Notes: a model not told the origin generated them from the letters alone. A stretch of DNA of 64,000 bases from a virus (IMGVR_UViG_2595698618_000001:15136-79135), one strand, 5' to 3'. Counted from the first letter of the stretch, positions 4,886 to 60,716 are shown. Translations and numbers: made by a program.

Positions 4886-5515
4886 ATGGCATTAGATTCT
4901 GACGGAACACTATATGACGACCGTGACCCTGTGACGCTTTCAGGGCTTCGTGAAGACCAGATGGCGGTGACGCCGAAAGACTTAAGAGAGGCTGGCTCTA
5001 ATGTAGATATAGCCGCCAGCGCAGAAGACTTGCAGGCTGAAAACAGTATTGGACTTACGCCTACGGAGAACATTGAGCGTCTCCAAGCATTAGGCTGGTA
5101 TACTGCTGAAGAAGCCGAGCGTCGAAAGAAGCAACTTCGTGCGAACATCGAAGAAGCGGAGCAACAAGAGCCAAAGGGCCTTGTCTCTGTGGAGATGGTT
5201 TATAATCAGCCGAATATTTCGGTGTCTTCGTCTGGACGCTTCAAAGAGCATCAGACTATTGATGGTCCTATTGTGCGTCAAAAGATTGGTGAAGGTAACG
5301 TTGAAATCGAAATTGAAGGTGTATGCACTACACCAGAGGCGAAGGTTATTGACACACTCCGATTCGAGGGCACGATTACTGTCTTGAGTGATAGGTACAG
5401 CGGTGAGGTGCAGATTGCCTCTACTTCAACGAGTCCTCTCGAAGACGGTGGTGCGATGAATCTCGACGGGCAGTTTACACATACATTTGGAATTTCCTGT
5501 GTTGAGGTAGAATAA
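4886..5515 (+). CDS. Tail/baseplate initiator (GpU-like) protein
   Basis: Synteny after the tape measure; beta-rich C-terminal domain. Confidence 0.5.
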   Translation: MALDSDGTLYDDRDPVTLSGLREDQMAVTPKDLREAGSNVDIAASAEDLQAENSIGLTPTENIERLQALGWYTAEEAERRKKQLRANIEEAEQQEPKGLVSVEMVYNQPNISVSSSGRFKEHQTIDGPIVRQKIGEGNVEIEIEGVCTTPEAKVIDTLRFEGTITVLSDRYSGEVQIASTSTSPLEDGGAMNLDGQFTHTFGISCVEVE

Positions 5516-6765
5516 TGGTTGTGTACGACCAAGAACTTCACGTAGAAGTTGACATTGGTGGGAACAAGTGGAAGCCTATTGATGGGAACGTTACTCGTTC
5601 TCGGTATAATGAGGCGGATACGGTTCAGATGATGGCTGTTCCTGACCCTGATGAGAATCCTGATGCTGTTCCTGTTGAGGAGCAGGAGATTACAGTACGG
5701 CTTGGTCCTCGGTCGAGTGTGACGACAGACGGAGAGCGTGACTTCGTTAATGATGATTTACTGGTGACTGTTTTCACGGGTTATGTTACCAACGTCTTCG
5801 ACTTTGGTGATGGCTCGTGGGAGATTGAAGCAGTCAACTATATGTTGGATTTAAAGACTACTAACGTTTATGTATCTGTTGATACGTACATTTCTACGTC
5901 TAATCTTGTAGAAGAAGTCGTGAAAGACGTTAACCTATTTGCAGGAATTGACCTTGATTACAATATTGACTTGTCTCCGACTTTCCCCGGTCCCTATGGT
6001 TACTCTCGATGGAGTGCTACTGGTCAACAGCCTGAAGCGACTGACGAGTTAATTTCACGAGAGTATACTGGTGTTAAAGCGGCGAAGGTTCTGGATGAAC
6101 TTTCAGAAGCCGCGAATGCAATTTGGTGGATTGATGCTAACAATACACTACAATTCGGACCAACGAATACAGCCGCTCACAAACTTTCGTGGGTGACTGA
6201 AACAAGTGCTGGAAAGCAGACGCCTCCGTATAAGAGTGTTAAGGTTGTTGGAGACAATATTGTATCGACTGAGGGGTGGGCGCGTAGTCAGATGCTTTCT
6301 GAAGCGACGGGCCTCTCACAAGGTCAGTTACAGCGTCTTGGTGCGGAAGATGAGGAAATTGGTGCTGGTGGTCTTGTGCCACCTACGTTTACGTATCGTA
6401 ATGAGTCGATTAAGACTCAGGCTGAGGCTGAACAGATTCGTAATCGGATTTTGGACGAACTTCAGCAACAGCAGGCTGGTGGTCACGTTACTATTGTTGG
6501 TCGTCCGATGATTGACATTCTTGACGTGATTGAGATGCCCGATTCGTTTGGGCGTACTTCTACTTCTCCCGATGAGGAGTCGGAGTTCATAGAACCGGCG
6601 CAATACATCGTACAGAAGGTTGAGCATCGTTTGAGTGGTCAGGATGGTTACGTCACAAGAATCGAATGTGGCGGCCTTGCAGAGCGTTACAGCGGCCCCG
6701 TATACGAGTATGATGAAAACGGGAATCTTATCCTGTCCACAGAAGAAGGAAACGAGGATGAATAA
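5515..6765 (+). CDS. Baseplate hub protein (GpD/late control D-like)
   Basis: VLDELSEAANAIWWIDANNTLQFG and C-terminal YIVQKVEHRL...GYVTRIE are hub-like motifs. Confidence 0.75.
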   Translation: MVVYDQELHVEVDIGGNKWKPIDGNVTRSRYNEADTVQMMAVPDPDENPDAVPVEEQEITVRLGPRSSVTTDGERDFVNDDLLVTVFTGYVTNVFDFGDGSWEIEAVNYMLDLKTTNVYVSVDTYISTSNLVEEVVKDVNLFAGIDLDYNIDLSPTFPGPYGYSRWSATGQQPEATDELISREYTGVKAAKVLDELSEAANAIWWIDANNTLQFGPTNTAAHKLSWVTETSAGKQTPPYKSVKVVGDNIVSTEGWARSQMLSEATGLSQGQLQRLGAEDEEIGAGGLVPPTFTYRNESIKTQAEAEQIRNRILDELQQQQAGGHVTIVGRPMIDILDVIEMPDSFGRTSTSPDEESEFIEPAQYIVQKVEHRLSGQDGYVTRIECGGLAERYSGPVYEYDENGNLILSTEEGNEDE

Positions 6766-9297: not shown

Positions 9298-10464
9298 ATG
9301 GTTGACTTATCTCGAATTATTGATAAGTTTCCTGAGATTATTCCTCGGGAGAGTAATAGCACTATTGCTCGTTACATCGAGGCGTTTCAGGAAGATACCG
9401 ATGGTCTTGCTGATGACTTAGACGATATTAGAGATAGTCGTTTCATCGACCAAGCAACGGGTGCTGACTTAGACCGTATTGGTCGAATGTATGGTCCTCT
9501 TGGTAGCCGTGCTGGACGAGATGACCAAGAATATCGAACATACCTAAAGTCTCTTGTTCCAGTATTCCAGTACCGAGGTACAGTTCCCGGTATCAGAGCG
9601 GCTGTTGCGGCAGGGCTTGGTATTGAAGATGGTATTAATGGTGGCGGTCCTGCTGACTTAGAAGTTTACGAACACTATAATGACGACCCTGCTAATCAAG
9701 AAGAATATCTTGAATATACCATCATTCTTGACGAGTGGACACCCCACCGAGGTTCTACTATCGAGAATCTTGCGGAATTGTCAGACGCTTCTGTGTCGAG
9801 GTTGCGTAAGACGACTTACAACTTGCCTGAAGAAGAAGCAGGTGTTACTGATGCAGTTAATGTAACTGAAGGTCAAGTTATTACTGATGCGATGAGTGCA
9901 TCTGATGCGAGTTTCGTCAATCCTAATTTGACGACTGTGCCAGATGCCGCGTCTGTTGATGAGCAGGTTTTCGTCAATCCTAATTTGACGACGGTTGCCG
10001 ACGAGTCTGCGGCGTCGGAGGATGTTGTTAAGACTGAGCGTGATGCTGGTAAGGCTCGTTGGGACCAACAGCGTGTGGACTGGGACTTCTTCGAGTGGGC
10101 TGTTATTGAAGAACTTCTACGTACTCACGCTGAGGATGTATCGGTTGATGAGCAGGTTTTCGTCAATCCTAATTTGACGACGGTTGCGGGAGGTACTGGT
10201 GGTAGTTCTGATTCGGTTGCTACTAATCCAAACCTCACGACAACTTCTGACTCTGCATTTGCGGATGATGCGAATGCGGTTGACCCGAACCTTACGACGG
10301 TTGGGGATGATGCGAGTGCTGATGACGCTACAGCCGTTAATCCGAATACTACAACTGTAGCCGAGGATTCGACTGTCACGGAGAATGTCACGACTACGAC
10401 GACTCAAGTGGCGTGGGATTCCGGCAGTTGGGACTCGATGAATTGGGCTGTAGAACACAACTGA
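9298..10464 (+). CDS. Baseplate wedge/tail protein (GpI-like) with ~20-aa (V/T)NPNLTTV repeats
   Basis: ATGADLDRIGRMYG...RDDQEYRTYL; C-terminal half is repetitive. Confidence 0.75.
   Translation: MVDLSRIIDKFPEIIPRESNSTIARYIEAFQEDTDGLADDLDDIRDSRFIDQATGADLDRIGRMYGPLGSRAGRDDQEYRTYLKSLVPVFQYRGTVPGIRAAVAAGLGIEDGINGGGPADLEVYEHYNDDPANQEEYLEYTIILDEWTPHRGSTIENLAELSDASVSRLRKTTYNLPEEEAGVTDAVNVTEGQVITDAMSASDASFVNPNLTTVPDAASVDEQVFVNPNLTTVADESAASEDVVKTERDAGKARWDQQRVDWDFFEWAVIEELLRTHAEDVSVDEQVFVNPNLTTVAGGTGGSSDSVATNPNLTTTSDSAFADDANAVDPNLTTVGDDASADDATAVNPNTTTVAEDSTVTENVTTTTTQVAWDSGSWDSMNWAVEHN
9912..10350 (+). repeat. Imperfect coding repeats (NPNLTT units) with an exact ~39-nt duplication
   Basis: TGAGCAGGTTTTCGTCAATCCTAATTTGACGACGGTTGC occurs at ~9960 and ~10149. 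Confidence 0.85.
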
Positions 10465-27705: not shown

Positions 27706-28509
27706 GCGTAATAGTAGGATACGGGTTCCTACTACTTAAACCTTTCGGTTTAGTTTAGGTCTACGTTTGGGAGCGAGCGTTTATGCTCCTGAATCCACGG
27801 CGTGTTCTCTAAAGCGTCGATGACGCTTGAGTATAGCGCGGAGTCAGTTGCAGAATCCGCCCACGATTTTGAACCAACCTCGTCTTCGAGGAGGTTCTTC
27901 ACCGTGTTGCGAGATTCGTTGGTCTTGACCCAAACCGATTTGTCTTGAGTGAATGTAACCGGAATCTTCTTCCAGTTATCGTCTTCCGCAAGCATCGTCT
28001 GCTTTAATTCACGCATACGCTCGCGCTTTTTACGGCGCTCCTTCTTCTTACGCTGATGGTATGCGTGACGCATATTACCTCCCATTGCAATCTATACTTG
28101 GACTCCCTAATACTTAAAGGTTTCGATGCGCCTTCTCAAGCAAATACATCATATACACTTGTCGCCGCCACTTTTCAGTAGGAAACTCACCCTCAGTATA
28201 TCCGAAGTAAATTCCAGTAATCGGATGAGTGATAGTCCCACCTACGTTAATATACTGCTCACCCTTGTAATTAATTACGTCGCCGTCGTGTATCACAGGT
28301 ACATAGCCCCCGTAGTTTGATTAAGACAAATGTAAAGACGACTTCACACAATTCAGTTTGCTTACTCGCTCCAATATCGTCTTGCGCCCTGAATGTCGTG
28401 AGGTACTTTTCATCTTTGCCAAATTCAAGGTGCGCGACCTCACCGCACGAATTACACTCTGCTTGGTATCCGTTAGCGGCGTAACCCATATTGCACCAGT
28501 CTGGTTCGT

Positions 28510-30395: not shown

Positions 30396-30478
30396 TGAGC
30401 GGAGCAGGATTCGAACCTGCGAAGGACTATACCGGGAGGATTTGACTCTCCTGCCTTTGACCACTTGGCTATCCACTC
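30396..30478 (-). tRNA. trnL: tRNA-Leu(CAA)
   Basis: ggaga-gtCAAat-cctcc (31:39 mismatch); long V arm. Confidence 0.8.
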
Positions 30479-30481
30479 AGA

Positions 30482-30565
30482 TGCACCCGCTTGGAATCGA
30501 ACCAAGAAAGCCCCTACGGGCAAGGCCCCTCAAGCCTATGGGTTTCACCAGTTCCCTACAGATGC
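30482..30565 (-). tRNA. trnL: tRNA-Leu(GAG)
   Basis: aggc-ttGAGgg-gcct; long V arm. Confidence 0.8.
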
Positions 30566-30572
30566 GCGTAAT

Positions 30573-30650
30573 TCAGCAAAGTTGAGAGTGAGGTTGGTTT
30601 CTGAATCCCAAGATTTTGGTGGAATTGAAGTATCTCACTCCCTCGGCTGA
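30573..30650 (-). ncRNA. Y-RNA-like RNA #1 (78 nt) between Leu tRNAs
   Basis: UCAGC[C]GAGG/CUUUGCUGA bulged-C helix plus GAGUGAG/CUCACUC; shares 20/22 nt with the RNA upstream of TROVE. Confidence 0.65.
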
Positions 30651-30734
30651 TGAGCCGGGCAGGATTCGAACCTGCAAAGCACTAAAGCGCGAGGTCCTAA
30701 GCCTCGTGAGTTTAACCATTTCTCGTACCGACTC
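30651..30734 (-). tRNA. trnL: tRNA-Leu(TAG)
   Basis: cgagg-ctTAGga-cctcg; long V arm. Confidence 0.9.
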
Positions 30735-30764
30735 GCGTATTTACACTATACGAACTCCTACTAT

Positions 30765-31217
30765 TTAAAACTTTCGATTTAACCCCATCTTACTCCTAAT
30801 CTCATCCTGCTTTCGAGCAACCTCAATATGCTTCGCCAACTTCTGCTGGTCTTCATAAGTAGCAGGCATCCCATCCTTCAAGTGAACCTTATCTCCCTGA
30901 ATATTCACTACACTATTTCCACTAATCGTAGTCGTCTGCGGAGCGCCACCAGTCGTGGTAGACACATTGCCAATACTCACCCCACCCGCGCCAGCAACTC
31001 CATCTACATCATCAAGGATTTTCTCAAGTTCACTCGCCTCTGCACAAGGCTGACGCTGAATCAAGCCAAGCGCGTAATACTTATACTTCTGCACACTTTC
31101 AGGCCCGTCCTTGTAAAAGATGTGCGGAACGCTCTCGCTCAACTCGCAATCTTCGCACTCGAACGTGCCATCCTCGAAGGTGATTGTATGTCCCCCGAGA
31201 CTCACAGCATATTTCAT
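30765..31217 (-). CDS. Zn-ribbon paralog family member
   Basis: Start MKYAV at 31217 (longer call overlaps a tRNA); GHTI...CEDC...YYALG...PC. Confidence 0.55.
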   Translation of the reverse strand: MKYAVSLGGHTITFEDGTFECEDCELSESVPHIFYKDGPESVQKYKYYALGLIQRQPCAEASELEKILDDVDGVAGAGGVSIGNVSTTTGGAPQTTTISGNSVVNIQGDKVHLKDGMPATYEDQQKLAKHIEVARKQDEIRSKMGLNRKF

Positions 31218-34090: not shown

Positions 34091-34193
34091 TGGACCGCCC
34101 CGGATTCGAACCGGGAGTTCCTTGCTAATTTGGAGCAGAAGCCGTAACTTCAACTCTTGCAAAGCAAGTGTCTTGCCATTAGACCAGCGGCCC
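34091..34193 (-). tRNA. trnA: tRNA-Ala(TGC) with 31-nt BHB intron (34127..34157)
   Basis: G3:U70; intron at 37/38 with central helix UUUG/CAAA and 3-nt bulges CAA and UUA. Confidence 0.9.
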
Positions 34194-44225: not shown

Positions 44226-45025
44226 GGGCTGATTTGAACTGGGCCTTTGTCGTCCCAGTAGGCGGCGGTGTAGGGAATCCATTCGCGTAGTTCCTCGACT
44301 ACACCATCGCTCATATTTCGAATCTCCCATTGTGCGTTTCCGCGTTGGCGGAGGTTGAGGACGTGGAGCATCGTGCGAGCGTTGCCCGACATTGTGACGT
44401 TAACCTGAGTCGCCAGAGGGAGCGCATACCGAGCGTCTTCGGCAGGCACGCCCAAGTCAAGCAGAGACTCGTAAGCGATGGTGCAATTCTTCAGCGCCTT
44501 CTCGTAGACGTGTTTGGCGTTCTCTCGAACTTCGTCGTCTTCATCCTCCCACACGAGGCCGTCGCTTCGCGTGAAGTGGTCGGGGTTCGTGAGAGACTCA
44601 GGCATTGCGTAATCAGGGTCGTCAAAATCGACGTAACGCATCGACTGAATATCGAATGAGAGGTGTCGGTGTCGGGTAATCTGCGCCATCGTGACTCGAC
44701 TCATTCCCTCGATAGCGAACGTAATTGACGGATGCTCCCAAATTCCCCAATGGCCGCGACTCGCCTGCTTGCGAATGAACGCACGAGTCTTCGCCTCATC
44801 GTAAATGTAATCCGGCAACTCGTCAATATCTTCATCGAGGAATGCGTTGTCAATCTGTGGGTTCTCACGGATTGCGCCAGCAATGTCTTCGGTCCCGTAA
44901 TCGACTGGTTCCATCAGTTCGGTGTAGTCTGCATCTCCGACGAAGCCGCCGTACATATCTCCTCGTCCCGAACGGCAGATAAGCCTCTCGGGATTTTCAG
45001 TCTTGTTGAGAACTTCGACCTTCAT
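44222..45025 (-). CDS. thyX: Flavin-dependent thymidylate synthase
   Basis: GHWGIWEH; SRVTMAQITRHRHLSFDIQSMRY; EDARYALP; AQWEIR. Confidence 0.95.
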   Translation of the reverse strand: MKVEVLNKTENPERLICRSGRGDMYGGFVGDADYTELMEPVDYGTEDIAGAIRENPQIDNAFLDEDIDELPDYIYDEAKTRAFIRKQASRGHWGIWEHPSITFAIEGMSRVTMAQITRHRHLSFDIQSMRYVDFDDPDYAMPESLTNPDHFTRSDGLVWEDEDDEVRENAKHVYEKALKNCTIAYESLLDLGVPAEDARYALPLATQVNVTMSGNARTMLHVLNLRQRGNAQWEIRNMSDGVVEELREWIPYTAAYWDDKGPVQISP

Positions 45026-49407: not shown

Positions 49408-50289
49408 TCAGCGAACGATAGCGTTCTTGATGAAGTCATTAATCATCTCCGTATTCATCTCTCCATCGAGGTGATTCTCAGGCGTTAGTTCACGGTCCAA
49501 CTCAGCCTCGATGAAGTCCTCGAACGGATTACCGGCGTGGTCGTAAGCCTCCGCATTACGCTTCTTCTCGATGAACGACTGGAGCAACTCATACTCGTCT
49601 TCACCAAGGCCAAGCGACTCCGCATTCTCAGAGGCGAACTTCGGGAAGTCCATCGTCGGCATCTCGTGAGTCGTGCGAATATGCTTCGCGTGAAGGATAG
49701 CACGCATAATGTAGAGGTTACGCTTGACCGTCTGCTTCAAGTTACCAGCCTCGTACTCGTCCGACTCTTTTGGAATATCCCCAATCCCCGTATGCCAATA
49801 ATGGTCATCCTCGTTTTCAATTGGGTAACGCTCGCCCTCCGTGTCGTAGATACACGGCTTTAGGTACTTCATATAGTTCGACTCAGCCATCGAACGATAG
49901 TGATAGTAGAGCGCGATTGGCTTGAAGTTTGCATTCGCCATCTCACGAAGTTCGTCAAGAGTCCCGATAAACTCAGGATTCTCGAAGTAAGTGACTGGCG
50001 AATTGAGGAACTCAAGAGTCGTCGGATTCGAGTCGTTGAGCAATTCCCCGAACTTCTTAATATTCCAGCATTGGAAGTCGATTTCGCCTCGCTTGATAGT
50101 TAGCGTATCCTCGTAGCCACCGATTGTGGCATAGTCGCTCGCATCTTGAGCGAAAATGAGGAAAGCGTCGTAGTCCGACTCGGGGGAGTCGAGATTCATC
50201 ATATGCGAACCGAAAGAGCGACACGAAATAGCGTGAATGCCCTCGCTCTTTTCGATTTCGTAAATCGTGTTTCTAATTTCTTCTCTCAT
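49408..50289 (-). CDS. RlaP-like (Pol-beta family) predicted nucleotidyltransferase
   Basis: FGSHMMNLDSPESDYD; WNIKKFGELL..SNPT.LEFL.SP; KRNLYIMR. Confidence 0.8.
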   Translation of the reverse strand: MREEIRNTIYEIEKSEGIHAISCRSFGSHMMNLDSPESDYDAFLIFAQDASDYATIGGYEDTLTIKRGEIDFQCWNIKKFGELLNDSNPTTLEFLNSPVTYFENPEFIGTLDELREMANANFKPIALYYHYRSMAESNYMKYLKPCIYDTEGERYPIENEDDHYWHTGIGDIPKESDEYEAGNLKQTVKRNLYIMRAILHAKHIRTTHEMPTMDFPKFASENAESLGLGEDEYELLQSFIEKKRNAEAYDHAGNPFEDFIEAELDRELTPENHLDGEMNTEMINDFIKNAIVR

Positions 50290-50613: not shown

Positions 50614-50934
50614 TCATTTGTGGCTAATTGTTTTGTAGTATTTTTCGATACTTAGTTGGGCTTCTGAAACGTCGTTGTCGTTGTAGAAGTCACAGATTTC
50701 TATCCAGTCGTTTTTCGCGTGGAAGTTTCTGTGGTATCGTGAGCGAAGTAAAAGAAGGTTCGCCGGGCGATTATCCCACGGTATTGTATTCCTGTGGTGA
50801 ACGTTCCATACACGTCCATTGAATACGTCGTGTGGGTCTTCTTCGACACAGGCGAGTAGTCGATGTAGTTTGACAGAATCTTCTCCGTCTGTGACTACTT
50901 CGTATCCGCCTACTGTCTTGAAGTTGATGCCCAT
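50614..50934 (-). CDS. HNH endonuclease (HNH_3-like)
   Basis: KLHRLLA...VHHRN..PWDNRPANL...H. Confidence 0.8.
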   Translation of the reverse strand: MGINFKTVGGYEVVTDGEDSVKLHRLLACVEEDPHDVFNGRVWNVHHRNTIPWDNRPANLLLLRSRYHRNFHAKNDWIEICDFYNDNDVSEAQLSIEKYYKTISHK

Positions 50935-52463
50935 TACCGCGCCGGTTCTACTGATTCAATCTCTTGAATCATCCCATCGACGTTCTCGACCTTCTCGATG
51001 AAGTCGAGGACCTGTTCCGACCAGCCGCTCATATTGTAAACGTCGTGAGCGCCTTCTGGTGTTACGAGGTCGCCGTAGTGTTGTAGGTCGATGAGGTATA
51101 GGCTTGCGTTAGGGTTCTCCGCCTTATACGCATCCCATTCGTCCTTGAAGGACGTGTTGGTTCTCCAAGTGGAGTCGTTCCAGAGTTGCATATCGGTGAA
51201 CACGATGATACGCTCGTAAGAGCGGTCTTCGTTGCGTAGTCCACGGAGGACTTTCCAACCGTTAGTCGAGCCACCGACTCCGACACTCTGCATCTTCTCC
51301 GCGTTGGTGACGAGAGGGTTTCTCGGGTCGGCGTTAATTTCAGCGAAGTCGCTTGCGAAAACGCCAACATCAGATTGCCGTTCGAGCATCATTGCACCGA
51401 ACAGCGTTGCAATCTCCATACATTGCAGTTCCGAGTCTCCCGATACAGAAGACCGCATCGAACCACTCACGTCTACTGCGGTGAACGTATTCTCGAACAC
51501 GTCGGGTAGGTTCTCCGTAGCGACTTCCATCGCATTTTCGAGGAACTCCAGCGCGTTTTTATCGTTAGGCGTGTCTCTGCTCTGCTTGACAGCCTTGTAC
51601 GCTTGGTAGAACCGGAATGGGTACATCTGACTGTTTCGAACCCATTCGTCGGTTACGTCACCAAAGATTTCCTCACCGGAGAGTCCGGCGTCGAGCATAT
51701 TGCGAACGTTGCGAACCCGTGCGAAGATAGGCATCGAGTAGCCATCCTCATTTTCTTCGAGTTGTTCGCGCCAAACCTCAGCCTGACTCCGGCCCTCTTT
51801 ACCGGCTTCAGACATTTCGTTCTCCCACGTATCGGACTGCTTGAGCGGGTCTACGTCAGGATGGGAGTCCAGTTCTCCGAGAGCAATCTGCTCAAAAATT
51901 GCATCTCGCTCCTCATCCCGAGGACGCGGGTGAACGAGGTTCAGCAAGTCGCGGTACTGCCATTCTCTCGAAGGGCGGTCCCACTTTGCAAACTGATACT
52001 CGTTGAAATTGTGGAGAGCATCCTCGATTCCTTTCTTCAGCGGATTCGGGATGGACTTGCCGTACAGGGAAACCTGCATCGCAAGAACTTCCAAGGGTTC
52101 ATCTGCACGCTGAATAACTCCCTCAGCATAACTACGAACGTAACCCTTGGTCCGGTCATCGTTGGCCGACAGTACGAGCAACAGTTGAGGGACTTGCCGA
52201 AGATTCTCAGACTGTCGCGCATACTTAGCCAACTTCAGGACAAATTCTGGATTTACATCCGCCACTCGGTCGAACTCAGTCCGAACGTCATCTAACGAAT
52301 CCTCAGCCGACTCGTAATAAGAGTCTTCGAGGAGGTTCGTCAGCACGTTCTTCGTGAGAGCAACTTCGGGCGAGTCAGGCGAATACGCTTCGCCACCCTC
52401 ATAGTTGTCCTTCTCAGTTCGTTCTGCGACTGTCTCTTTCGTGTCGTTGTAGTTGATTCCCAT
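50934..52463 (-). CDS. rsr: Ro60/TROVE-domain ribonucleoprotein with C-terminal vWA
   Basis: NYEGGEAY; PEFVLKLAKYARQ..NLR; YQFAKW; DLLNLVHP; MYPFRFYQAY; MIDAS DVSGSM; FTDMQ; SGWSE. Confidence 0.9.
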   Translation of the reverse strand: MGINYNDTKETVAERTEKDNYEGGEAYSPDSPEVALTKNVLTNLLEDSYYESAEDSLDDVRTEFDRVADVNPEFVLKLAKYARQSENLRQVPQLLLVLSANDDRTKGYVRSYAEGVIQRADEPLEVLAMQVSLYGKSIPNPLKKGIEDALHNFNEYQFAKWDRPSREWQYRDLLNLVHPRPRDEERDAIFEQIALGELDSHPDVDPLKQSDTWENEMSEAGKEGRSQAEVWREQLEENEDGYSMPIFARVRNVRNMLDAGLSGEEIFGDVTDEWVRNSQMYPFRFYQAYKAVKQSRDTPNDKNALEFLENAMEVATENLPDVFENTFTAVDVSGSMRSSVSGDSELQCMEIATLFGAMMLERQSDVGVFASDFAEINADPRNPLVTNAEKMQSVGVGGSTNGWKVLRGLRNEDRSYERIIVFTDMQLWNDSTWRTNTSFKDEWDAYKAENPNASLYLIDLQHYGDLVTPEGAHDVYNMSGWSEQVLDFIEKVENVDGMIQEIESVEPAR

Positions 52464-52475
52464 TTTGTATCACCA

Positions 52476-52561
52476 CGGTTGAAATTGGAAGTCGGGCCAC
52501 CATTTTAGGCAGGTGACAAAGCCCAATTTTCAATATTGAAGTATCCGACTCCCTCGCACCG
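52476..52561 (-). ncRNA. Y-RNA-like RNA #2, ends 13 nt upstream of the TROVE start codon
   Basis: CGGU-G[C]GAG/UUUC-A-ACCG bulged-C helix; GGAGUCGG/CCGACUUCC; AUACUUCAAU; promoter at ~52590-52608. Confidence 0.7.
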
Positions 52562-52735
52562 GGTTAACGGCATACTATCATAGGGACTCGGACTACTTAA
52601 ACCTTTCGGTTTTCGTGGAAGTAGAGCCGGTCATACCGAGACGAATAACACACCTTCTCCGCATCAGCCGTGTGAAACGTCCCTGCACTCCCAAGATTCA
52701 CCTTCCTCGTGTACGGGTCGCCACAAATAGAACAA

Positions 52736-55304: not shown

Positions 55305-55436
55305 TAGCCCCGGTAGGATTCGAACCTACAATCTCTGCTTCCAGATAGCGAAGTAACGCTTCCAATCGCTCCACAAAACGTGGCTGAAATCTCAGAAGCG
55401 ACGTAATAGCGCCTTGAACCATTCGGCCACGGGGCT
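55305..55436 (-). tRNA. tRNA-Gln(CTG)-like gene with 58-nt insertion in the anticodon stem (55350..55407)
   Basis: A1:U72 acceptor AGCCCCG/CGGGGCT; removing the insertion gives ctgct-atCTGga-agcag. Confidence 0.6.
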
Positions 55437-56168
55437 TCGTAAACGTCGGCTAAATTTGAGAACGCGGTTGTGGATTCATAGTCTTGAAGTATGCGTTCTC
55501 GTCGTCCGACAATACACTATTAGGACCCCTACTACTTAAAGGTTTCGAATTTCATCAGCGACTTCGGCGCGAATATCTCTCGATGGAAGCGAACCAAGAG
55601 CAAACGCTATATACAGATGCTCCCGAAACCACTTCTTCGCAAATTCTCCCTGTTCGTCAAAATAAAACGCACTACCACGATACATTTCTTCAGCAATCTG
55701 GTCGAGTAAACGCGGAATCGTATCATCGACAAACGTTTCGTGCGTCTTCGACTCATTCGGACCCGAAAAATGATACCAACTCCCACCAAGGTCCACACCA
55801 CCATAGCGAGAATCATCATTCATCGGGTGAGTGCAGGTAGCGACTAAGTACCCCGCTTCTTCCTCGATAGTAATCCGCAACGACGCCTCACTATAATACG
55901 AAATGTAAAACGTGTATTCAACCATTTAATTCCTCATCTAAAGCGGCGAGCGTCTTCCACAACATCGGAAGTGTTTCATACGACGAATAGCCAAGGCTCT
56001 CCAACGCCGACTGCACACCATTCGTGTGAATGTATCCATCACCAATACAATGATAAATGCAAACCATTGTTTCAACCTTTTCTCGGTGGGATAATTCTCG
56101 ATTCCTTGCCTCTATCGCGTCGGCACTTGTTGTTGAGACTTTGACACCGGGGAAGTCTCCATAGGTTG

Positions 56169-56589: not shown

Positions 56590-57981
56590 CTATTCTGCCT
56601 TGATGGAGAGGAACGGCTTGACTCTATCGACCACTTCGACCGATTCTCCGAGCGCGGCTTCGATTTGTTCAGCAGGCTTGTACGCACCGGGAATCTCGTC
56701 CATCGGCTTCTTCGACATATACACGTCGCCAATCTGTTCCTCGAAATCGTCAGCGTCGAACTTGTCGTGAGCCGCAGTACGCGACATAGCCCGACCAGCA
56801 CCGTGTGCAGACGAGTTATTCCACGAGTCCTTCCCACGCCCTCGGCAGAGGAGCGTTCCGTAAGACATATTCAGAGGCACGACAAGGCGCTCTCCATCGT
56901 GGGCACGGCACGCGCCCTTACGCACAGTCGCGTCCTGAAAGTCGATGTAGTTGTGGACGGACTCAACCTCATCCTCCCACCAGACGGGGACTTCCTCGTT
57001 AGCCTCGCCATCTTCGCCCAAGATAGAACGAACTGCATCGAGGACTGCGACAGCCATCTGCTTGCGCGAGACGCTGGCGTAAGTCTGAGCAAACACCATA
57101 TCCTTGATGTAGCCGTGCGCTTCCTCTCCTTCGAGGTAGTCCAAGTCCGTGTTGCGACCGGATTCAGCGTTCTTCGTCTCCTGAATGAATTGAGACAGTT
57201 CGTTGAACTTCTCCTGAATTGCCTCTCCCTCGAAGTCTGCGCGAATCTTATCCGACTTCGGCTTCCAGTCTTCACCGAGATATGGCTCGATGGAATCAGG
57301 AATCTCCGTCTCAAGCGCACGCTCGTTCATCCTATCGGTGGCTACATCCTGCCAATACTGGGCAATCTGAGCGCCGATGCCACGAGAGCCGGAGTGAATA
57401 ATCACCCAAACGTCGCCCGTCTGCTCCGAGCGACCAAACTCGATGAAGTGGTTGCCTCCACCGAGTGTACCGACGCTGTTGATAGCGCGGCCTTGGTCGT
57501 ACCCTACGCGCTTGCACACGTTCTTGAAGTAGTCGAGGCCGTACACGTCTTCGGGGTCTTCCTCGATAGCGAACTGCGTCTGCTCCGTGAACTCGTCCAG
57601 TTTGTAGACACACTCACGCCACGGGAAGTCGTTGCCCATATGGAAGCCGTTTCTTCCGTGAACGTCGAATCCCATTGGAATACGCTCGCGCACAGCAGAG
57701 TCGAGTTCCTCAAGCGAATCGAAGTCAACGTCCCCGAGTTTGATAGCGAACATTCCGCAACCAATGTCCACGCCAATCGTGTTTGGAACAATCCGATTCT
57801 TGACAGGCATCGTGAAACCGATAACCGCTCCTGCTCCCCAATGGGTGTCAGGCATAATCGCAACGTCGCCCTCACCCTCGAACGCAGGGTGGTCCACCAT
57901 CTCCTGAATCTGGTCTTTAGCCTCCGACTCGACGGAATCAATCTTTACGTCAGCCGTGTTGTAATCGCCTTCAATCTTCAT
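56590..57981 (-). CDS. rtcB: RtcB 3'-phosphate/5'-OH RNA ligase
   Basis: MPDTH.G.G; IGVDIGCGM; GTLGGGNHFIE; HSGSRG; HNY; RKGA; HGAGRAMSR; DEIPGAYKP; start MKIEG at 57981. Confidence 0.97.
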   Translation of the reverse strand: MKIEGDYNTADVKIDSVESEAKDQIQEMVDHPAFEGEGDVAIMPDTHWGAGAVIGFTMPVKNRIVPNTIGVDIGCGMFAIKLGDVDFDSLEELDSAVRERIPMGFDVHGRNGFHMGNDFPWRECVYKLDEFTEQTQFAIEEDPEDVYGLDYFKNVCKRVGYDQGRAINSVGTLGGGNHFIEFGRSEQTGDVWVIIHSGSRGIGAQIAQYWQDVATDRMNERALETEIPDSIEPYLGEDWKPKSDKIRADFEGEAIQEKFNELSQFIQETKNAESGRNTDLDYLEGEEAHGYIKDMVFAQTYASVSRKQMAVAVLDAVRSILGEDGEANEEVPVWWEDEVESVHNYIDFQDATVRKGACRAHDGERLVVPLNMSYGTLLCRGRGKDSWNNSSAHGAGRAMSRTAAHDKFDADDFEEQIGDVYMSKKPMDEIPGAYKPAEQIEAALGESVEVVDRVKPFLSIKAE

Positions 57982-58099
57982 ACTCGAAAGAAGGGGCCAC
58001 AACGTTATAAACGTTGCGGTTAAGCCGAACTCAATCGGAACCAACGGGTTCCGACAGTAACGCTACTCGTTACTGCTAACCGGCGGTTGAGGTTGAAAA

Positions 58100-60615: not shown

Positions 60616-60716
60616 AACTACGAGGGAGCCACCCAAGGAAGGACTCGAACCTTCATTCTTTAGAGTTACAGTCTAATGTTGTACCTTGAAGTAACGGTCA
60701 GCCTTCGTCTCGCGTT
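60616..60716 (-). ncRNA. YrlA-like Y RNA candidate #3 with tRNA-like domain
   Basis: 5' stem strand GCGAGACGAAGG; UUACUUCAA; arm UUAGA-cuGUAac-UCUAA; T-arm GAAGG-UUCGAGU-CCUUC; own promoter at ~60735-60755. Confidence 0.65.

Follow-up and report, generated by a model that had tools for sequence, protein, structure and literature searches.

Y RNAs, the partners of Ro60 proteins, have been described in animals, in bacteria, and in a small number of bacteriophages. Bacterial YrlA RNAs have been recognized by a GNCGAAN0-1G motif and by a position no more than 4 kb from a Ro60 ortholog, on the same strand, in a survey of 254 bacteria and 22 bacteriophages that leaves archaea unmentioned (Chen et al., 2014; PMC4201824). 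The Ro60 protein of Thermus phage phiLo binds two phage-encoded Y-like RNAs, Yrl1 and Yrl2, which also bind the host PNPase (PMC12135203). One preprint reports a Ro60 gene in Asgard viruses, with no Y RNA identified; neither Rfam 15 nor the literature searched, the Wolin-group reviews lying outside that search, holds a description of Y RNAs from archaea or archaeal viruses. The element considered here is an 85-nt spacer between the tRNA-Leu(TAG) and tRNA-Leu(GAG) genes of halovirus HGTV-1, a haloarchaeal myovirus (PMC13532342). It lies in a stretch of 64,000 nt (“the window”), bases 15136-79135 of the 143,855-bp virus record. A 2026 paper on the HGTV-1 tRNA genes mentions neither TROVE nor Y RNA.

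An initial reading made from sequence alone (the sequence-only reading) had proposed a Y-RNA-like gene at this position. The follow-up analysis finds that the spacer is a conserved structured RNA gene. We think it fairly likely, with real room for doubt, that its product is a small noncoding Y-RNA-like RNA, of a family tied to Ro60/TROVE proteins in haloarchaea and tailed viruses, and that this RNA is released by tRNA processing.

A conserved structured RNA gene in the leucine tRNA cluster

ARAGORN finds 35 tRNA genes on the minus strand, and the four leucine tRNAs of the virus (GAG, TAG, TAA, and CAA) are those already published (PMC13532342). The remaining two spacers of this group of genes each measure 3 nt, so that an 85-nt structured spacer is exceptional in this cluster. 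Both flanking tRNAs are placed by ARAGORN and by Rfam, confirming the proposed location, and the coordinates of tRNA-Leu(TAG) bear out the proposed start at the base after its discriminator (Table 1). The element follows tRNA-Leu(TAG) at 0 nt and ends 7 nt before tRNA-Leu(GAG), which starts at 30565; the gap had been given as 8 nt.

The core of the element is a long end-to-end stem capped by a 41-nt loop. The predicted minimum free energy is -23.0 kcal/mol for the 78-nt core (z-score -2.89, with 2 of 200 shuffled sequences as good) and -23.8 kcal/mol for the full 85 nt (z-score -3.54, 0 of 200). The two arms are asymmetric, with a 3-nt internal-loop side opposite a 6-nt side. The helices proposed in the sequence-only reading exist, and its 41-nt loop was right; comparative data place the middle of the helix in a different register, however, and put a conserved hairpin inside the loop. 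As had been claimed from the lack of a T-loop, the element is not a tRNA: T arm and D arm are both missing, and ARAGORN and the Rfam tRNA model (RF00005) find no cloverleaf in the spacer. A scan of 30400-30800 found no Rfam family, tRNA included, that matches the spacer at E<=10.

Relatives were reached by walking metagenome contigs of HGTV-1-like viruses by way of thymidylate kinase and its neighboring genes. The element is present in two of these. In L063, with a thymidylate kinase 81% identical, the order is Leu(TAG) - element - Leu(GAG), and the element scores 35.7 bits against the covariance model R1 described below; IMG/VR contig L252 carries the same element. In L067, with a thymidylate kinase 55% identical, the order is Leu(GAG) - element - Leu(TAG), and the R1 score is 22.0 bits. 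The element is absent from the Leu clusters of L309, with an 8-nt spacer, and of L306-308, with a 39-nt spacer; L064 and L305, which have few tRNAs and no Leu cluster, were left outside the comparison.

The three-way alignment has 20 pairs, with 96.7% of cells paired and both-sided changes at six pairs; the observed values are not attained in any of 500 shuffles, and slid partners pair at 29-49%. In the lower stem, two of the five pairs are changed on both sides in the L067 ortholog. The upper stem is 100% paired in all three orthologs: four of its pairs are compensatory and one replaces G-U with A-U; the HGTV-1 stem has one G-U pair. At the loop start and in the inner hairpin, AAUUCC/GGRAUU, it is the sequence itself that is conserved. 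The three orthologs also fold alike individually (z-scores -2.9, -4.2, and -4.9). Between HGTV-1 and L063 the element is 87.6% identical, as compared with 69-99% for the true tRNAs of the region, 71% for the adjacent open reading frame, and 73% for the promoter leader. Conservation, on which the proposal had been made to depend, was thus found, with compensatory changes. A coding reading was considered and rejected: the 21-codon GUG-to-UGA frame of HGTV-1 is broken by a 1-nt deletion in L063 and has no start codon in L067.

Other routes to relatives gave little. A blastn search of the region against GenBank phages returned only an unrelated tRNA-level match, a TROVE-protein search of genome contigs no match, and a search of IMG/VR with protein P0002 one weak match, L004, without tRNAs. 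Of the DNA patterns, one of 19 bases had no match in IMG/VR; one of 14 bases, run against the metagenome and IMG/VR, gave only chance matches among those listed, except L252; and L252 was the only match in IMG/VR to one of 21 bases.

The TROVE-linked RNA family

HGTV-1 encodes a full-length TROVE/Ro60 protein, the presumed partner of the RNA. Among solved structures, the one closest to this protein is phiLo Ro60 (9KOP/9L5Y; E 1.2e-33, almost full length). From haloarchaeal genomes, 51 TROVE loci were collected; arrays of hairpin RNAs with a common handle lie upstream of the TROVE gene. The covariance model R1 was built on cellular sequences alone, from 18 diverse haloarchaeal RNAs upstream of TROVE genes. 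With these seeds RNAalifold predicts 16 pairs and finds compensatory changes in 13. In the cellular handle, a 7-bp lower stem is followed by an internal loop, with NCGA on the 5' side and NGUUUUC on the 3' side, and then by a 9-bp upper stem; within the internal loop GA is invariant across the seeds and C nearly so (U in three).

An unfiltered R1 search of the entire window has the element as its best match (Table 1). The family handle is present: UCAGC/GCUGA, CGA against AACUUU, the 9-bp GGGAGUGAG/CUCACUCUC, and the loop start AUACUUCA, with a lower stem of 5 bp as against 7 bp in the cellular consensus. The next two matches are siblings D and B, the latter in the leader of the TROVE gene. 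The sequence AUACUUCAA, 3' of the 5' stem of the element, recurs intergenically on the same strand in both siblings, and as UACUUCAA in a further candidate, element C; sibling B and the element also have CGAGGGAGU and AUACUUCAAU in common. Sibling D has its own promoter motif at 55531-55546, and the transcription start predicted from it is the first base of the lower stem.

The family is closely tied to TROVE. On the cellular TROVE loci R1 has 135 matches, in 48 of 50 loci, all upstream and on the TROVE strand, and in the whole 4.6-Mb Halogranum rubrum genome there are only two matches, both at the TROVE locus. Among 151 Halobacteria genomes, 14 have TROVE, 14 have R1 matches, and 13 have both, that is, 13 of 14 TROVE-positive genomes as compared with 1 of 137 TROVE-negative ones (Fisher one-sided p 1e-16). 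The exceptions are one genome, G040, with TROVE and no R1 match under stricter filters, and one, G087, with a weak match (29.5 bits) and no TROVE. Like the cellular members, sibling B is on the TROVE strand and no more than about 1 kb upstream of the viral gene.

In the cellular loci (L008-L058), the TROVE gene ends a tRNA cluster: two to five Y-like RNAs are followed by, usually, tRNA-Arg(TCG), two to four hairpins, and the start codon. In some copies of the island the tRNA-Arg carries an insertion. These islands are nearly identical across genera, including distant ones, and are often plasmid-borne, which suggests that the TROVE block is a mobile island.

In related viral contigs, one to four family members lie around the RtcB and TROVE genes, and their number and position vary by virus (L059:1135-1217, 5457-5537, 5601-5694, and 9855-9994; L062:5433-5521; L005:2396-2463 and 2604-2743). 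No family member was found within the flanks read of L007, where the TROVE match is 2.2 kb long and perhaps interrupted, or of L060.

Sibling D ends 6 nt before an insertion-bearing tRNA-like gene at 55305-55436 (-), and the same pair occurs in the closest related virus (L059:5457-5537, then a tRNA match at 5540-5665). The tRNA-like gene has a full acceptor stem, D arm, and T arm, with a 71-nt insertion replacing the anticodon region; it scores 45.7 bits with the Rfam tRNA model and is not called by ARAGORN. Part of the insertion together with the T arm matches the loop part of R1 (55311-55358, 12.6 bits). This may be a tRNA with an intron, or else a relative of the Y-like family shaped like a tRNA. 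A second tRNA with an insertion, 103 nt long at 34091-34193 (-), is likewise passed over by ARAGORN (Rfam 51.6 bits).

For two candidate members no support was obtained. Element C, at 60616-60716 (-), has its own promoter motif (60747), a GACGAAGG motif, UACUUCAA, a perfect T arm, and a partial Rfam tRNA match of 35.1 bits; it has no R1 match at E<=10, and it folds no better than its shuffles (z-score +0.99). An R1 match at genome positions 98709-98779 (-), equivalent to L311:19710-19780, scores 21.6 bits (E 0.002) but is inside a long open reading frame and lacks the loop motif; it is probably due to chance, and R1 E-values near 1e-3 are therefore unsafe when taken alone.

Table 1. Positions, within the window, of the parts of the element, its neighbors, R1 matches, and associated protein genes.
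Feature	Position	Strand	Basis, score, or remark
Promoter-like motif (B recognition element/TATA), GAAAGT TTTAAATAGT	30760-30775	-	Motif scan; 35 nt upstream of tRNA-Leu(TAG)
tRNA-Leu(TAG), upstream neighbor of the element, CCA not encoded	30651-30734	-	ARAGORN and Rfam
Whole spacer, predicted released RNA, 85 nt (78-nt structured core plus 7-nt 3' tail)	30566-30650	-	Bounded by two tRNA genes
78-nt core of the element	30573-30650	-	Begins at base following Leu(TAG) discriminator
Lower stem, 5' strand UCAGC	30646-30650	-	Pairs with 30573-30577
Internal loop, 5' side, CGA	30643-30645	-	Invariant in three orthologs
Upper stem, 5' strand GGGAGUGAG	30634-30642	-	Nine pairs with 30584-30592
41-nt loop, starts AUACUUCAAUUCC (family motif UNCUUCR)	30593-30633	-	Loop start kept in L063 and L067
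Inner hairpin in loop, AAUUCC/GGGAUU	30621-30626 / 30604-30609	-	Conserved in L063 and L067
Upper stem, 3' strand CUCACUCUC	30584-30592	-	R1 alignment, three-way alignment
Internal loop, 3' side, AACUUU (U-rich counterpart of family NGUUUUC)	30578-30583	-	R1 alignment
Lower stem, 3' strand GCUGA	30573-30577	-	Three-way alignment
7-nt single-stranded tail, also 5' leader of tRNA-Leu(GAG)	30566-30572	-	Position only
tRNA-Leu(GAG), downstream neighbor of the element	30482-30565	-	ARAGORN and Rfam
R1 match 1, the element	30570-30654	-	28.4 bits, E 2.1e-5; best in window
R1 match 2, sibling D	55443-55513	-	20.3 bits, E 0.0037
R1 match 3, sibling B, in leader of TROVE gene	52473-52565	-	18.5 bits, E 0.011
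R1 next best	44267-44306		13.3 bits, E 0.3
RlaP	49408-50289		
TROVE/Ro60 gene, 509 aa, presumed protein partner	50934-52463	-	TROVE and Ro60-type vWA domain (vWA_Ro60)
RtcB	56590-58044		

Proposed production and alternative explanations

A motif scan found no promoter-like sequence between Leu(TAG) and the element. With a single promoter motif before Leu(TAG), at 30760-30775, transcription of the Leu tRNA operon would reach the element second, after tRNA-Leu(TAG). The motif upstream of the Leu clusters is conserved in L063 and L067. Its general form, GAAAsN TTTAAGTAGT(AGG), is strongly conserved, resembles a B recognition element and TATA box, and has 34 copies in the genome, before leaderless genes, tRNA clusters, and elements B, C, and D (for example at window positions 27740, 31324, 34232, 36211, 38323, 52601, 55540, and 60747, all on the minus strand); from its first T it is about 31 nt to a leaderless start codon or to the first base of an RNA gene.

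Because tRNA-Leu(TAG) has no encoded CCA, tRNase Z would cut directly after its discriminator and set the 5' end of the element at 30650. RNase P, in making the 5' end of tRNA-Leu(GAG), would cut at 30565/30566 and leave an RNA of about 85 nt, perhaps trimmed toward the stem. Adjoining tRNAs are usual for this family: in 41 of 44 cellular cases 3-6 nt separate a member from the tRNA that follows, the spacing between members is 4-12 nt, several members begin 3 nt past a tRNA, and in viral contig L005 a tRNA-Met abuts a member. This arrangement fits release by RNase Z and RNase P, a route that would couple the dose of Y-like RNA to viral tRNA output. The element is very probably a member of the TROVE-linked Y-like family made by tRNA processing.

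The proposed Y-RNA-like nature is supported by the presence of a viral Ro60/TROVE gene, the best R1 match in the window, conservation with compensatory changes, and tRNA abutment as in the family, and the element is probably the Y-RNA-type partner of the virus's own Ro60 protein. By analogy with described complexes, the handle (lower stem, CGA against the U-rich side of the internal loop, and 9-bp upper stem) would bind the Ro60 ring, of the virus or conceivably of the host, while the 41-nt loop with its conserved hairpin would serve as a module that gates the ring or tethers an effector (PMC4201824; PMC12135203; bioRxiv 10.1101/312249). The neighborhood of the RtcB ligase and the RlaP nucleotidyltransferase points to RNA repair or quality control during infection, in which the ribonucleoprotein might act together with these enzymes.

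Several observations weigh against this interpretation. The near identity of the cellular TROVE islands means that the Fisher p overstates the independence of the genomes, and the co-occurrence may in part reflect a single mobile block. The R1 seeds were chosen by a motif filter derived from the viral elements, so that part of the likeness between cellular and viral RNAs is there by construction, and the R1 E-values rest on a shortened calibration. The element, although on the TROVE strand, is some 20 kb past the 3' end of the TROVE gene, not within about 1 kb upstream as for the family, and outside the 4 kb applied to bacterial YrlA (PMC4201824). The Leu clusters of L309 and L306-308 show that it is dispensable. 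The segment that includes the CGA and the two bases before it, GCCGAGG, resembles the bacterial GNCGAAN0-1G: it retains GNCGA and then has G in place of A. The element has neither the T arm nor the D arm of the YrlA tRNA-like domain, and at E<=10 it is matched by neither the metazoan Y RNA family RF00019 nor the YrlA family RF02553 (gathering score 69 bits). A 14.9-bit YrlA fragment at 30643-30675 is mostly the T arm of the neighboring tRNA and covers only the first 8 nt of the element, and Rfam YrlA stays below its gathering score on every cellular and viral family member searched.

Of the alternatives, the one that survives best is that the spacer, though conserved and structured, acts only in cis on the pre-tRNA, affecting which of the RNase P and RNase Z cuts comes first or how efficiently they are made, or protecting the transcript, and is then degraded without a Ro60 partner. 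The embedding in a tRNA operon without a promoter of its own is what such a spacer would look like, as is its absence from the clusters of two related viruses. We nonetheless consider this unlikely: the other tRNA pairs of the cluster manage with 3-nt spacers, a mere processing spacer would have no need of the conserved loop sequence and inner hairpin, and the element matches a family that adjoins TROVE genes and co-occurs with them genome-wide.

A second alternative, to which we give rather less credence than to the cis-acting spacer, accepts a released family member and assigns it a partner other than the viral Ro60, either as a decoy for the host Ro60 or with some other nuclease or RNA-binding protein. 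A TROVE gene of its own, with family RNAs, does occur in at least one further Halogranum species (L036/G001), the element is distant from the viral TROVE gene, and it lacks the tRNA-like module of many cellular members. Its handle nevertheless recurs in sibling B, within the viral TROVE leader, down to the identical CGAGGGAGU stretch, and nothing indicates another partner.

Far less probable is an inverted repeat acting as DNA, whether a site bound by protein or a footprint left by a small mobile element. Variable presence among related Leu clusters and the different flanking tRNA order in L067 could be read this way, but the arms differ in sequence between orthologs and still pair, HGTV-1 has a G-U pair, the arms are asymmetric, and every family member is on the strand from which TROVE or tRNA genes are transcribed. 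A tRNA pseudogene, such as a decayed copy of tRNA-Leu, would account for the 85-nt, class II length, the location in a Leu tRNA cluster, and the loose alignment of GGGAUUCAGAAACC with a T arm in the R1 alignment, but is barely credible given that ARAGORN and the Rfam tRNA model are blank even at E<=10 and that the fold kept under selection, as the compensatory changes show, is a long end-to-end stem instead of a cloverleaf.

If the spacer does encode a Y-type RNA, the Ro60/Y-RNA partnership extends to a third domain of life and its viruses; such an RNA can be produced with neither promoter nor terminator of its own, as a spacer between processed tRNAs; viral tRNA arrays can conceal other functional RNAs, and unusually long tRNA spacers are worth inspection; and the interleaving of Y-like RNA and tRNA genes offers living support for an origin of Y RNAs from tandem tRNAs. 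The broader proposal is that Ro60/Y-RNA ribonucleoproteins exist in the archaeal domain, viruses included, that their Y RNAs are tRNA-operon units cut by RNase Z and RNase P, and that the virus with the largest known archaeal-virus tRNA set couples a Y RNA to its tRNA output, within a kit of Ro60, RtcB, and RlaP for RNA repair or quality control; on this we are evenly divided between acceptance and doubt. HGTV-1 and Halogranum roseipondis were recently established in culture, which makes the prediction directly testable.

Comparison with known Y RNAs and tRNA-linked RNAs

Metazoan Y RNAs (RF00019) resemble the element in having a terminal stem, a bulged or looped Ro-binding segment that contains CGA, an upper stem, and a large loop. 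The human hY1 has a bulged C followed by GAAG, which the register first proposed here, a bulged C followed by GAGG, would mirror. They differ in belonging to another domain of life and in their 3' ends: the element lacks a pol III-type oligo-U end, and its own would be made by RNase P, not by termination.

Small RNAs whose ends are set by RNase P or RNase Z include mascRNA from MALAT1, tRNA-linked snoRNAs, and viral miRNAs. These are unrelated to the element in sequence and function, and none is known to be of Y type; what they have in common with it is that their ends are defined by enzymes acting on adjoining tRNAs or tRNA-like structures.

The phiLo system is similar in combining a virus-encoded Ro60 homolog with virus-encoded Y-like RNAs, and it is a CGA(A) motif that is recognized there. 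In phiLo the RNAs are encoded immediately 5' of the gene for Ro60, and their binding to Ro60 and to host PNPase has been shown, whereas the HGTV-1 RNA is in a tRNA operon and its binding is predicted from sequence.

With bacterial YrlA/YrlB (RF02553) the likeness includes paired 5' and 3' ends, an internal loop with a GNCGA-type motif, a location on the strand of the Ro60 ortholog, and a link to RtcB. The long cellular haloarchaeal members go further, with a permuted T arm, closed acceptor stem, and D arm as in YrlA: one of them has a sub-threshold YrlA match (31 bits, E 8e-5 in 551 nt) in which these three parts are aligned. This match in permuted order suggests that the family is a distant relative of bacterial YrlA/YrlB, with the element among its short members. 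The hosts listed for the YrlA/YrlB type are bacteria and bacteriophages only (PMC4201824), and the element differs from these RNAs in its archaeal virus host, its place between two tRNA genes, its lack of a promoter of its own, and its distance of about 20 kb from the Ro60 gene. Having no tRNA-like module, it compares best with the shorter YrlB class, and the best reading is a short, YrlB-like Y RNA that would be produced from a Leu tRNA operon by RNase Z and RNase P.
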